IMG/VR virus record: IMGVR_UViG_3300049381_000011
Location: 1 to 64,000 of that record
Reading direction: 5' to 3' (one strand)
DNA from: a virus
Taxonomy: Duplodnaviria; Caudoviricetes
DNA length: 64,000 bases
Below, in pieces: positions 7,013-40,184 of this stretch. The translations under genes were made by a program, and so were the position numbers. Each line of letters begins with the position of its first letter. The first letter of the stretch is position 1. Under the pieces are notes generated by a model that was not told the DNA's origin, did not search any database, and saw only the letters and a list, made by a program, of their open reading frames with translations.

Positions 7013-7285
7013 TTAATTGGTGTGGATGAGCCCCAGTGCCAGCTGCAGCCGCTCCCACTCCGCCCGGTTCTCATCCGTCGGGGACAGCAGCGTCACGACC
7101 TGCGCGAGGAAATACCGCCGATCGGCGCCGGCGGTGCCACGCACGCATTCCAGCTTCCCTTCGTCGGCCCACTTCGCGACCGTCTTGGCCGCCACGCCGA
7201 ACATGTCCGCGCACTCCGAAGGCCTCAAAAGGGCGGGGCGCTCGCGTAGCCACGCGAGCGCCCCGCCCTGGTCCGTCATCGTCAT
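7013..7285 (-). CDS. bldC: BldC-like MerR/Xis-type HTH protein
   Basis: LLRPSECADMFGVAAKTVAKWADEGKLECVRGTAGADRRY matches the BldC pattern LLTPAEVAxMFxVxPKTVxRWAxxGKLxxIRTLGGHRRY. Confidence 0.65.
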   Translation of the reverse strand: MTMTDQGGALAWLRERPALLRPSECADMFGVAAKTVAKWADEGKLECVRGTAGADRRYFLAQVVTLLSPTDENRAEWERLQLALGLIHTN

Positions 7286-7506
7286 GACTGCAACAAGCCC
7301 ACTCCGACGACGACGACCAGACCTGCGATGGTCAACCATCCCACTCCCTGTACGAACATCAGGCAGGCGGTCCGCAGGTGCCTGCCGACCCGCTGCAGCG
7401 GCGTCCAGTCCACGTACTCCCACACCCTGCCGATCGCGTACACGGCTGCCGTCCAGGCGATCGCCGCCAGGACCCACGCTGCAGGTGTCATGCCTCCATC
7501 CGTCAT
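7282..7506 (-). CDS. Small membrane protein
   Basis: Two hydrophobic segments; ATGA overlaps on both sides. Confidence 0.6.
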   Translation of the reverse strand: MTDGGMTPAAWVLAAIAWTAAVYAIGRVWEYVDWTPLQRVGRHLRTACLMFVQGVGWLTIAGLVVVVGVGLLQS

Positions 7507-12093: not shown

Positions 12094-12253
12094 GCAGGCG
12101 GTTCCAGCCGCCTGCATGTCTCAGACTAGCCGTATGGCGTTAAATCGTCAATAACATCTACCCGTATTTTCGGTCAGTGTTTGCCACCCAGCCAGCGCGA
12201 ACACGCGCAGCCGTGAACAACTTATTGACGATTTACCGTCGCATGGGTAGCTT
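12094..12253. promoter_or_regulatory. Divergent pair of phage-motif promoters (minus 12123-12151, plus 12225-12253) and CUGGAA hairpin (minus 12094-12115)
   Basis: TTGACG-17-TAGTCT on minus, TTGACG-17-TAGCTT on plus, both with TTATTGACGATTTA. Confidence 0.8.
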
Positions 12254-13137: not shown

Positions 13138-13459
13138 TGGCCGACTGGTACGCCGCACGCCCGCGACCGGCGACGGCCGACGAGCGGCGCGCAAGCCGGG
13201 CGCAGCTGTACGCCGACCTGCTCGCCGCGCTACCCAGACCTGGCGCGCGTCCGATGCCGACCGTGTGCTGGCCGAGCGGTTCGCGATGGACTCCTACGAC
13301 TGGTCGAGCAAGTTGTGGCCGGCGCTGGACCTGCTGGTCCGGCACGGCCTGGTCGAGCGGCTCGCTGTCGAGGATCAGCGGGAGCGCAGCTGGCGCAAGA
13401 CGCAGGAGGGTGCGGCGTGGTCTGGGACGCCGTTTGCGCTGCTCAACACCCTCAAATAA
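13137..13459 (+). pseudogene. Frameshifted winged-helix-like gene
   Basis: ATG 13137 (TGATG coupling) reads MADWY...PMPT; the protein-like continuation RVLAERF...LWPALDLLVRHGLVERL is in another frame; one added base near 13260 would join them. Confidence 0.55.
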
Positions 13460-13475
13460 AAGCGTGCATATGTTA

Positions 13476-13548
13476 TTGACGATTTAACTTTGGGCGGGTA
13501 ACGTATCAGGTACAGGCGCTGGAAACGCCCACCAACCCGACCAGGAGG
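13476..13548 (+). promoter_or_regulatory. Phage-motif promoter (TTGACG-17-TAACGT) plus CUGGAA(A) hairpin and CCAGGAGG
   Basis: CATATGTTATTGACGATTTA; GGCG-CTGGAAA-CGCC at 13515-13529. Confidence 0.75.
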
Positions 13549-13553
13549 ACATC

Positions 13554-13901
13554 ATGTCGAAGGCCATGCTCACCGACGCGCAGTTCGAGACCATCGCCAG
13601 CGTCCTGGCCCGGCACGGCGGGAGCGCGCTCCGGTTCGCCGACACCAAGACCGTCATGACCCTCACCGCGCTGAACCGCAAGGGCATGGCGACGATCGTC
13701 TGGGGTGTCGTCGACGGCCGGCGCGGCATCCACTCGGCGGAGATCACCGGCTACGGCCGGACCATCCACCGCGACGAGACCACCCGCCGCGCGGCGGTCG
13801 CCAAGCGCGACGCCAGCCTCGCCGGCGAGGCCACCCGTCGCGCGATCGACGTGCAGCTGGGCCTGGCCCCCGCATCGTGCGGATACGCCTACAGCGCGTG
13901 A
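13554..13901 (+). CDS. Small winged-helix-like hypothetical protein
   Basis: LTDAQ...TLTALNRKGM...EITGYG pattern; strong SD. Confidence 0.65.
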   Translation: MSKAMLTDAQFETIASVLARHGGSALRFADTKTVMTLTALNRKGMATIVWGVVDGRRGIHSAEITGYGRTIHRDETTRRAAVAKRDASLAGEATRRAIDVQLGLAPASCGYAYSA

Positions 13902-13912
13902 CCATCACCGCG

Positions 13913-13947
13913 ACGTCCCCGGCCGGTTGATCCCGCCGGGGACGTCG
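13913..13947 (+). terminator. Hairpin after 13554-13901
   Basis: GACGTCCCCGGC...GCCGGGGACGTC. Confidence 0.6.
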
Positions 13948-14021
13948 TCTGTCACCCGATGTGCCAACCCGCCGAGAAACCCCGCATATGTTATTGAATT
14001 CGCCTGGCCGGGGGTAATGTC

Positions 14022-14605
14022 GCTGACGCGCGGACCTGTGGTTTCGCGCTCAGCCGGTCGGAGACTGACTCTGCGGCCGCACGCAAGACCAGACCGGGTT
14101 GACCCCGGAATGGACAGACACGGACACACACCGTTAGCTAGCCGGACCGTTGCTCCCGGCGGCATCGGTGTGCCCGCAAGGTGAGACCCAGGGTGAGGCC
14201 AGCCCAAAAGTGGGGCCGCCCGCGTTGGACGCGCGGACGACCCCGTTCCTCCCCCTGGCCCCGCGACCGTGTGGCGGTCGCGGGTGGGCGGTGGCGTGCT
14301 GAGGGTTGACCGTGCCCCGTGCATCCCTCAGATGCGCCGCCGTCCCCCTTGCGAGTGATGGATCTTGGCCGTCTGGGCGTTCGGCGAACGCGACGGTCGG
14401 TTCTGAAGCCGTGAAAGGGTCGAAGCGCAGCGCAAGCGAGCGCCTGCACCGGGCTGTTTTCCCAGTACGCGGGCCTAAACCCTGCGCGATGTGCGGATGT
14501 TACCGCCGGGAGTGTTACCCCGGGTCACGCAGCGCAGGAAGATTTCCCCCGACAAGCGGATGGTGCACTAATTTGTGACCGTTCGGGCCGTTTTCGCTAA
14601 CGGCG
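14022..14605 (+). ncRNA. Putative large structured noncoding RNA (~590 nt)
   Basis: No credible ORF; preceded by CATATGTTATTGAAT...TAATGT promoter variant (about 13985-14020); more than a dozen consecutive hairpins; ends just before the next promoter. Confidence 0.6.
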
Positions 14606-14626
14606 CGAATCCACATGCGCATGTTA

Positions 14627-14655
14627 TTGACGATTTATAAGCACATGGCTAGTCT
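14627..14655 (+). promoter_or_regulatory. Phage-motif promoter (TTGACG-17-TAGTCT)
   Basis: CATGTTATTGACGATTTA. Confidence 0.75.
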
Positions 14656-14687
14656 GGACATAACACCAGTTTGCTGAGGGAGATCCC

Positions 14688-14969
14688 ATGTTCCGCACAC
14701 TGTCCCGGAAACGTGCCGACCAGTCCAGCACCGGCCGGAAGCGTTCTCGCGACAGCCGCGAGAGGCCGTACAACGGCCACACCAGAGTGGAGATCCCCAT
14801 GGGAGCCCGCATCAAGCCGCTACCCGGCGGCCGTCACCCGTCCGTCTCAGCCGCCACAGCATCAGCCCTGCGTGAGAACACCCAGGAGCTGCCGGAGATC
14901 AAGGACGCCCGTCTCAACAAGACGTCCCCGTGGCCCGCCCACATCCGACCGTTGAACACCGGTAGGTAG
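14688..14969 (+). CDS. Basic hypothetical protein
   Basis: GAGGGGAG SD following the promoter. Confidence 0.5.
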   Translation: MFRTLSRKRADQSSTGRKRSRDSRERPYNGHTRVEIPMGARIKPLPGGRHPSVSAATASALRENTQELPEIKDARLNKTSPWPAHIRPLNTGR

Positions 14970-38682: not shown

Positions 38683-38695
38683 AACAGGTCAGCTC

Positions 38696-39736
38696 CTAGC
38701 TGCCCGCGCCCCTACTGCTCTTGATCTGGGCGCGGAAATCGTCAACGGACTGGGGATCCGCGGTTCCTCCTCCGGCGGGCCCGCCGCCGAATTCGCCGCC
38801 GCTGGAGACGGGTGGCACCTGCGGCGCCGGAATCAGTCCGGTGACCTTGAGCGCTGGATCTGCCTTCACGGCTGTCTCAATTGCCGTGGAGAGCTGGGTT
38901 GCGAAGTCGGCGCCAGCCGGGTCCAGCCCGGTGACGGTGTCCATGAACCGGCGTGAGTCCGTCAGCCGGTGCGGGTCCGCTTCGTGTGTTTGCGCGGCCT
39001 GCCAGATCGCCAGCTCGACCGACTTCGTCTTGAGCGTGTCGGCGGTCTGCTTCTGCTCTTTCTGGGCCTGCTTGTGCTGCTGCTGCGACTCGGTCAGCTG
39101 CCCGGCGAGCTGCTCGACACGCTGCTCCGGAGTGAGCTCCTTGTCGGCCGGCGTCGGCTTCAAGCCGAGCGACTGCGACATCGTGTCGATCAGCTGCTGC
39201 AGCTTCGTTGAGGCTTCCGCCTGCGCCGTTTCAGCGGCCGTCTTCGCCGCATGCCGGTTGTCGCCGGACTCGCGGCGCAGCTCGCCGATGTACTGCTGCA
39301 CATCGGGCGGGAAATCGGTGATCGGCCGTTTCGACATCGGCACCGTTGCTGTCGCCGGCGGGGGTTGTGGTGCCCCGGACCCGGGCTGCCCGGGCGACTG
39401 CCCGGACGCCGGGACGACCGGTGGTGCCGTTGGCGTTGGTGCCGGCGGCGGGGTGAACTGGACCCCGGGCACTCCGGCCGGTGGGGTCGGGACTGCGGCG
39501 GGAGGCGCCGACGGGGCGACGGCACCTCCCACACCCAGACCGAGCGGATCGCCTCCCGGGTCGGCTGGTGCTGCAGGCGCCGTGGGGGCCGCGGGGGCGG
39601 CTGGCGTTGCAGCGGTGCCGTCCATGGGCACCCCGTACCGTGGCCGGCGCGCTGCGGCCGCGACCGCTGTCAACGCTGTGGCTGTGGTGCGGGGGTCAGC
39701 GAGCGCGTCAGGCGCATCCGCTCGGAGCTTCAACAT
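38696..39736 (-). CDS. Capsid scaffolding protein
   Basis: Pro/Ala-rich N-terminus, coiled coil, ADPHRLTDSRRFM, SSGGEFGG; just upstream of capsid. Confidence 0.8.
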   Translation of the reverse strand: MLKLRADAPDALADPRTTATALTAVAAAARRPRYGVPMDGTAATPAAPAAPTAPAAPADPGGDPLGLGVGGAVAPSAPPAAVPTPPAGVPGVQFTPPPAPTPTAPPVVPASGQSPGQPGSGAPQPPPATATVPMSKRPITDFPPDVQQYIGELRRESGDNRHAAKTAAETAQAEASTKLQQLIDTMSQSLGLKPTPADKELTPEQRVEQLAGQLTESQQQHKQAQKEQKQTADTLKTKSVELAIWQAAQTHEADPHRLTDSRRFMDTVTGLDPAGADFATQLSTAIETAVKADPALKVTGLIPAPQVPPVSSGGEFGGGPAGGGTADPQSVDDFRAQIKSSRGAGS

Positions 39737-39986
39737 GGGTGCCCTCCCGGGGCGTTCGGCGCCCGTCAAGGGCCCGTGGCGGGTATGAGTGAGCCCCGCC
39801 TGCCGGTGCGGCAGGCGGGGCTGAAAAGCCGAGCAGCCGCAGCCCAGAAGGGCTACGGCTGCAGGGAAGATGATCAGGCTGGGACGGTGACGGCCGTGTT
39901 AGGCTCTGATCCGCGGACTCGACATTCGCATCAGAGGCCCTGGTCTGGTGATTCACCAGCAACCGGGGCTTTCTTCATACCCCCGG

Positions 39987-40184
39987 TCATGACTCGTGAT
40001 CGATGAGCCCGGGCGCTGGCGGCCGCCAGTGCAGATAGGACCGCATCCACGCGGACGCGAGCGGCTGCTGGCTGGCGACGTCGTACGGGCAGGCAGCGAC
40101 ACCGACGTTCTGCCGGCCGGCGTGCATGCCCAGGTCCCGGGCCTGTTCGAGCGCGACAGCGGCATCATCGGCAGGGGTGCTCAT
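39987..40184 (-). CDS. Rmf/CrpP-fold-like small protein
   Basis: ARDLGMHAGRQNVGVAACPY...LASAWMRSY matches the G..AG.......CPY......W..G[WY] pattern; ATGA-coupled to 40181 gene. Confidence 0.6.
   Translation of the reverse strand: MSTPADDAAVALEQARDLGMHAGRQNVGVAACPYDVASQQPLASAWMRSYLHWRPPAPGLIDHES

Follow-up and report, generated by a model that had tools for sequence, protein, structure and literature searches.

Three adjacent GC-rich hairpins, designated H0, HA and HB and spanning ~150 nt in total (14212-14345), form the conserved core of a gene-free gap in the phage genome under study (G0), and they recur in all five gaps that follow a homologue of one small upstream gene. This module is probably either a short regulatory RNA or a transcription-stop module. 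Our preferred, though tentative, reading is that it closes a two-part cassette, in which a regulator-like gene would be followed by a promoter and by a 200-320-nt non-coding RNA ending in the hairpin stop or control module. As judged by sequence comparison, this cassette belongs to a small clade of Streptomyces-type siphophages.

Phage, host and related loci

The window, i.e. the whole stretch of 64,000 nt that was analyzed, comprises bases 1-64000 of a 95,941-bp IMG/VR virus record with an estimated completeness of 93% and ~68% GC. Its genes for a terminase and an SPP1-type portal, together with a 1434-aa ORF of tape-measure size, indicate a siphophage-type structural module, and no tRNA was found in it. 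The host is probably Streptomyces or a close relative, since relatives of the capsid protein, at 61-71% identity, were found in four Streptomyces genomes. Near-identical strains are present in several soil DNA metagenomes, the runs in which the sequence was detected were all of DNA, and in four soil DNA runs of low depth the strains were ~1-1.6% different in the gap, with no difference being informative for pairing. The soil strain of run X2 differs from the window within 13435-13720 by deletion of base 13619 and insertion of a T after 13623, has several substitutions within the upstream gene, and carries ~8 substitutions per 37 nt in the 5' UTR of the next gene (14639-14675) versus ~1% in the gap; depth was low in this run and some of the differences may be assembly errors.

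A terminase search identified G1 (IMGVR_UViG_2739368068_000001, an 83-kb record from an isolate genome), which is syntenic with G0 and whose capsid and terminase are 84% and 67% identical, respectively. Protein searches using the last gene of the tail module and a profile of the upstream gene yielded the additional loci L257, L259/L260 and L261, as well as L262, a G1-like fragment. Searches of other kinds were less productive. At the DNA level, the region had no match in phage records, a single 33-nt match to a PKS stretch in plasmids, nothing in five ~83-kb terL relatives, and only the promoter motif in common with the rest of the phage's own genome. Against viral contigs, no relatives were retrieved when the flanking proteins or the tail protein served individually as query, and the upstream protein as a lone query retrieved itself only. 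Neither 40 further terL relatives nor four Streptomyces prophages with a related capsid gene have the upstream gene and its neighbors.

Extent and coding content of the gap

Codon-position composition delimits the gap on both sides (Table 1), with GC3 at 0.95-1.0 for 13554-13901 (0.97 in one measure) and at 0.80-0.85 for 14688-14969. Across the 786 nt in between (13902-14687) there is no frame-specific GC3 signal, and since no frame stands out, the earlier statement that the gap holds no credible gene was borne out. Six-frame peptide comparison between gaps returned just low-complexity Arg/Pro matches that were not collinear, with no conserved peptide, and indel lengths in the HB alignment are not divisible by three. 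The gap contains neither iterons nor any other family of repeats. A reading as attP was rejected, as no integrase was found in G0 and the integrase of G1 lies 44 kb away from the gap.

The gap had also been described as the largest of its kind, but when ORF-poor stretches are ranked with a crude GC3 filter, it comes second in the window and sixth in the 96-kb record. The largest stretch, 38683-39986, contains no high-GC3 ORF, lies just upstream of the capsid gene and might be either a structured region or a gene of the scaffold type with unusual composition. It overlaps 39601-40184, a 584-nt segment with the strongest fold among those sampled (MFE -327 kcal/mol, z -5.1).

Table 1. Positions of features in and around the gene-free gap of G0
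Feature	Position	Strand	Remarks
Small upstream gene, 115 aa	13554..13901	+	GC3 0.97; adjoins the element in all five loci
Terminator-like hairpin ending the unit of the upstream gene	13911..13947	+	16-nt arms, 94% complementary, 5-nt loop
Promoter-like stretch (putative)	13985..14021	+	Half motif copy CATATGTTATTGA and -10-like TAATGT (14016-14021)
5' part of putative transcript	14022..14120	+	Three local hairpins in G0; z -3.09
Hairpin H0	14212..14244		13-bp GC-rich stem; in all five loci (13-14 bp)
Hairpin HA	14260..14284		Perfect 10-bp stem with CGCGAC core; stems of 8-12 bp at the same place in all loci
Hairpin HB	14286..14345	+	Long stem GGCGG.GG./CGCCGCC, inner stem and C-rich tail; alignment A9, five loci
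Right-hand part of gap	14351..14612		Variable, unconserved, folds no better than shuffles
Full promoter-motif copy and leader of next gene (14688-14969)	14618..14687	+	Motif related to the copy at 13985

Folding of the whole region

A preliminary description of this DNA had read 14022-14605 as a single ornate RNA of ~590 nt, either GOLLD/ROOL-like or of a new large class. What speaks for such an RNA is the long gene-free gap, the many predicted stems and an overall z of -2.8. Folded in one piece, the region has an MFE of -288.9 kcal/mol on the plus strand (z -2.81) and -287.9 kcal/mol on the minus strand (z -3.25), i.e. no net preference for either strand, where several G-U pairs and GCAA tetraloops had been said to work on the plus strand only. 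The plus-strand z of -2.81 lies within the genome's own range: dinucleotide-shuffle z-scores of 13 other windows ran from +1.1 to -5.1 (three of the 13 at or below -2.5), and the GC-adjusted MFE of the 584-nt region was at the 16-19th percentile among 159 same-size windows tiled over this genome. The stems that had been named do exist, including the perfect 10-bp stem at 14260-14284 and the long stem at 14287-14341, but both their density and the resulting fold are ordinary for this genome. In phage DNA of 68% GC, a long stretch that looks tiled with stems is to be expected by chance, and the 150 nt that matter were singled out only through comparison with relatives.

Folding strength is also unevenly spread over the region. 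Sub-windows 14022-14120 (z -3.1) and 14203-14350 (z -4.4) were more stable than their shuffles, 14100-14205 (z +0.2) and 14351-14480 (z +1.36) were worse than theirs, and 14470-14612 (z -1.94) did not differ significantly. Counterparts of 14022-14120 in the homologues had z-scores of +0.97, -2.42 and -0.48, so that structure in this part is inconsistent. No gathering-score match to Rfam 15, GOLLD and ROOL included, was obtained in the whole 64-kb window; within 13850-14750 there were six noise matches to unrelated small RNAs (E 1.6-9.7), far below gathering score. Homologous gaps vary in length from 450 to 822 nt, only the ~150-nt module and a short 5' block are conserved among these diverged sequences, and over the right-hand ~250 nt there is no conservation and no folding beyond that of shuffles. 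A whole-length multi-domain structure with covariation, which would mark a generic large ornate RNA, was not found, and the single 590-nt RNA is effectively excluded.

A three-hairpin module shared by homologous gaps

The gene-free gap after the upstream-gene homologue is 752 nt long in G1, 822 nt in L257, and 450-456 nt in L259/L260 and L261. Local alignment of the gaps to one another gave one strong collinear block, with scores of 66 (G1/L257), 50 (G1/L259), 39 (L257/L259), 38 (G0/L259) and 32 (G0/G1). Taken alone, the G0/G1 score is only at about the 97th percentile relative to real genomic windows, but the block has the same offset in the two gaps (360 versus 339 nt). The module itself folds with a z of -4.4 in G0 and -6.5 in G1. 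The stretch between the conserved block at the left end of the gap and H0 is unconserved and not consistently structured, and the same holds for everything to the right of HB, where no above-background block is shared with G1, L257 or L259, save one weak L257/L259 match.

Of the hairpins, HA has its CGCGAC core in G0, G1 and L257, and its pairs are all Watson-Crick across loci except for one G.A in L257; between G1 and L257 it shows one compensatory change, from T-A to C-G. The outer stem of HB has the form GGCGGCGG(C)GGGGG/CCCCCGYCGCCGCC and is followed by the inner stem. Its apical loop, listed as GGUUGACCGUGCCCCGUGC for G0, conforms in all loci to ..CCGU(0-3)GCCCCGUGC.., and is single-stranded throughout. 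In alignment A9 of HB from the five loci, 92% of cells are paired, versus ~50% when partners are slid by 1-2 columns. Homologous gaps do share a conserved paired module, but the double changes within HB are no better than in column shuffles: variation is mostly one-sided (G-C to G.U), with two of 16 pairs changed on both sides. True double compensatory changes are few because the stems are largely conserved in sequence over four independent lineages, and that small number of lineages also renders the covariation statistics weak. H0 and HA were aligned by hand, starting from the arms; MAFFT misaligned both entire gaps and entire modules, and its alignments were excluded.

A covariance model of HB (R2) scored 63-79 bits on the six known loci, while a single-sequence model (R1) recovered G1 as weak fragments only. 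R2 had no match in L255, L256 and L258, three related loci without the upstream gene, of which L255 has no large gene-free gap and L256 and L258 have gene-free stretches of ~350-370 nt. That the module is kept in all five gaps, each time beside one small regulator-like gene, is the reason for reading it as a probable regulatory RNA or transcription-stop module. Among 151 Streptomyces genomes R2 found nothing genuine, the lone match being a false one inside a relaxase-like gene, and the module was not found in 10 IMG/VR loci chosen by pattern. A second pattern scan of viral contigs added no member, metagenome contigs scanned with a strict pattern yielded a single chance match, in a proline-rich gene, and a scan of viral contigs for the loop motif found it in a hairpin context in G0 and G1 only. 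Because nothing genuine appeared in the 151 genomes or the pattern-scan loci, the module seems, as far as could be searched, to be limited to four diverged lineages with the upstream gene in common.

The recurrence of the hairpins also bears on the reading that the gap is mostly a functionless spacer, or contains decayed gene remnants, with ordinary terminator hairpins persisting by chance. Most of the gap is indeed unconserved and unstructured, and GC-rich hairpins are common in this genome; yet hairpin order, HB loop and gene linkage are shared by four diverged lineages whose gaps are otherwise saturated, and we consider a mere spacer improbable.

Two further observations were made during these comparisons. 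Another strong GC-rich hairpin pair is present at 7225-7323 (+), in the leftward early region, and scores 23 bits with R1. The 15-mer GGCGGCTGGACCGCC, a small hairpin of the promoter-cassette leader type, is identical in the G1 gap (L166 14509-14523) and the L259 gap (L259 2053-2067), lying ~90 nt and ~30 nt upstream of H0, respectively, and is absent from the G0 gap.

Strand asymmetry of the hairpins

Alignment cells that pair by wobble on one strand present an A.C mismatch on the other, and could thus be counted by the strand they fit. For H0, six such cells fit the minus strand only and none the plus strand, while for HB nine fit plus and one minus. The earlier suggestion that G-U pairs favor the plus strand accordingly holds for HB; it fails for H0, which favors the minus strand, and for HA, where all pairs are Watson-Crick. 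Two plus-strand C.A mismatches in H0 become G.U wobbles on the minus strand. Computed stabilities follow the same division, with the plus-strand form of HB being the more stable one by 1-9 kcal/mol in all five loci, and H0 being 1.4-8 kcal/mol more stable as minus-strand RNA in G0 (-26.9 versus -19.7), L259, L261 and L257, and 0.6 less stable in G1 (-33.5 versus -34.1).

L259 and L261 are near-identical, yet the positions of their H0 mismatches differ, and therefore at least four independent events must have occurred, all in the same direction. This pattern suggests selection on the module at the RNA level and is the strongest evidence for it obtained here, since a uniform mutation bias cannot act in opposite directions on hairpins 60 nt apart, and wobble pairs serve no purpose in duplex DNA. 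It also hints at transcription of the module from both strands. A U-rich tract comes after minus-strand H0 in G0 (ACUUUUGGG) and in L259/L261 (GUCUUCGAUGU), and none does in G1 or L257. On the plus strand, no U-tract follows HB in the loci compared, and a scan with a terminator consensus found no terminator-like site within 14212-14345.

Signs of use of both strands would also fit a sense/antisense RNA overlap that controls replication or copy number, in the manner of ColE1 or mycobacteriophage origins. Such a role would agree with the three adjacent hairpins and their wobbles, which indicate selection on both strands, with the position of a 450-820 nt gene-free region between tail genes and early region, and with the failure to find an integrase in G0. 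We regard it as quite unlikely, however, since neither G0 nor G1 yielded a ParB (ParB_N), a ParA-like gene was seen in G1 only and at a distance of 11 kb, G1 encodes a tyrosine integrase, inspection by eye of the right-hand parts of the gaps revealed no minus-strand promoter, and the region has no sequence match in the phage or plasmid records searched.

The upstream gene and its neighborhood

The upstream gene is the sole gene common to the loci around the gap, and the genes downstream are not homologous. Its homologues, at 35-53% identity, are found in G1 (35%), L257, L259 and L261, with the gap following each. The product had no sequence match in Pfam, PHROG or PDB. An AlphaFold2 model built from the five sequences (pLDDT 79) has the order helix-strand-helix-strand-strand-long helix, and the best Foldseek matches were all PadR/MarR winged-helix regulators, albeit weak ones (E 2.5e-3, TM 0.45-0.56); the protein is thus predicted to be regulator-like, with a winged helix and a long C-terminal helix. 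The terminator-like hairpin noted earlier at 13913-13947 was confirmed at 13911-13947, and an equivalent hairpin occupies the same place in G1 and L257. Genes beyond the gap have their own copies of the phage promoter in G0, G1 and L257, and include an endolysin-like gene with PG_binding_1 in L257, L259 and L261.

A neighboring gene of this kind raises the possibility that the inverted repeats act as duplex DNA, serving as operators or binding sites of the winged-helix protein, with the RNA hairpins being incidental. The strict co-occurrence of module and gene points this way, as do the palindrome binding of PadR/MarR-type proteins, to which the fold was matched, and the perfect palindrome of HA with its CGCGAC core in three of four lineages. 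Still, we hold this to be unlikely, given that arms of 8-20 bp and loops of 4-26 nt between loci are ill-suited to a fixed dimer site, that the most conserved part is the asymmetric loop of HB and not the arms, and that strand-specific wobbles would be meaningless for duplex DNA.

Promoter-like elements and a repeated leader cassette

The motif CATATGTTATTGA occurs in seven copies in the window, versus 0.08 expected. Six of these carry a ~90-nt cassette, at 12148-12160 (-) and at 13467, 14618, 59031, 59429 and 61909 (+), which contains CAYATGTTATTGACGATTTAAC, with a -35-like TTGACG joined directly to CGATTTAAC, and a -10-like TAGnnT. In four of the six (12148, 13467, 59031 and 61909), a leader hairpin GGCGCTGGAAACGCC and a ribosome-binding stretch ACCAGGAGGA precede the start codon. 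In appearance this is a family of early promoters that bear operators and share a conserved 5' UTR, loosely resembling the start-associated sequences of mycobacteriophages. A diverged counterpart in G1 (L166 13875-13960 and 14995-15070) is based on the palindrome CAACATGTTG, and L257 has a similar leader. A scan of viral contigs with the 17-mer promoter gave low-GC chance matches only.

The remaining copy starts at 13985, i.e. upstream of the putative transcript, where the preliminary description had placed a copy of the promoter motif; the motif is present, but as a half copy that agrees with the ~40-nt promoter and leader cassette over its first 13 nt only, and whose TTGAAT is separated from TAATGT by 15 nt, compared to 17 nt in the other copies. 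The promoter that had been proposed downstream was recovered as the related copy at 14618. A promoter belonging to the non-coding stretch itself is plausible, in that the -10-like element recurs at the left ends of the gaps. These share a conserved block of the form GG-TAnnnT, 5-6 nt and then (A)CGCGGCC (the G0 row being aligned by eye), in which the hexamer is TAATGT in G0, TACGCT in G1, TAGTCT in L257 and a degenerate TACGGG in L259. We infer that this block represents a -10 element and start region.

With a putative promoter of its own, and with the loop GCCCCGUGC both conserved and single-stranded in all loci, the stretch could also encode a small RNA of ~200-320 nt that acts in trans by pairing of its HB loop with an mRNA of the host or phage, a role that seems doubtful to us, as does the accompanying notion that the hairpins serve its stability and termination; the preference of H0 for the minus strand speaks against such an RNA.

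Proposed function and comparison with known systems

In the cassette that we favor, the upstream gene would end at its own hairpin, and a -10-like promoter ~115 nt past its stop codon would direct a plus-strand non-coding RNA, ~320 nt long in G0 and 200-260 nt in the relatives, that runs into H0-HA-HB. The module may then act as an RNA-level transcription stop, attenuator or insulator in both directions, with HB acting on plus-strand RNA and H0 on minus-strand RNA, and the conserved loop of HB may be a recognition site for a factor, possibly the neighboring protein. Against a role as a stop are the lack of a plus-strand U-tract after HB, the conserved loop, and, for the promoter, a poor -35 with 15-nt spacing. 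Should the module work as an RNA element, it would be an undescribed cis-regulatory or terminator motif of Streptomyces phages that is tied to one gene, and the whole would be a compact gene-plus-site cassette, usable as an insulator or attenuator part.

Intrinsic terminators likewise place GC-rich stems of 10-20 bp where a transcription unit ends, and minus-strand H0 has the U-rich tail in three loci. An I-shaped type of intrinsic (rho-independent) terminator has been reported for Actinobacteria. The module differs in being three hairpins in a row, with no U-tract after HB and with a conserved apical loop, and a conserved loop sequence is unusual for a plain terminator. GOLLD and ROOL resemble the gap as phage-associated non-coding sequences of several hundred nt; however, the gap matches neither model, has ~150 nt that are conserved, and lacks a multi-domain architecture.

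The three successive stem-loops described here, which show signs of two-strand use, resemble those of ColE1 RNA II and RNA I, where three stem-loops are likewise read on both strands; for control of the ColE1 type, only a plus-strand -10-like element was identified here, and it is the wobble asymmetry that hints at both strands. Replication of mycobacteriophage prophages with non-RepA parABS systems requires a non-coding RNA of 400-500 nt that lies between the tail genes and parA (Wetzel et al. 2020, PMC7157519). The gap is comparable in being a gene-free, presumably transcribed stretch, a few hundred nt long, close to where the tail genes of an actinophage end, and different in that there is no adjacent parABS, no sequence similarity, and an integrase in G1; a non-coding RNA adjoining parABS in a genome without integrase was seen in neither G0 nor G1. 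By analogy with these systems, the module might be a two-strand RNA pair that, together with the winged-helix protein, controls replication or copy number as an RNA-based origin in Streptomyces phages, which would make it a possible vector origin for actinomycetes; we judge this to be quite unlikely.

A parallel to the cassette as we read it is provided by phage lambda, where a pR'-6S RNA-tR' unit lies downstream of gene Q. In both arrangements a promoter would come immediately after a small regulator gene, and a non-coding leader of ~200 nt would then lead to a strong stop signal. The neighboring protein of the present cassette is predicted to be of the winged-helix type and not Q-like, and the downstream genes have promoter copies of their own in G0, G1 and L257, and antitermination by a lambda-like scheme would be a purely speculative extension of the analogy. 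The likeness to lambda includes, in L257, L259 and L261, an endolysin-like gene downstream.
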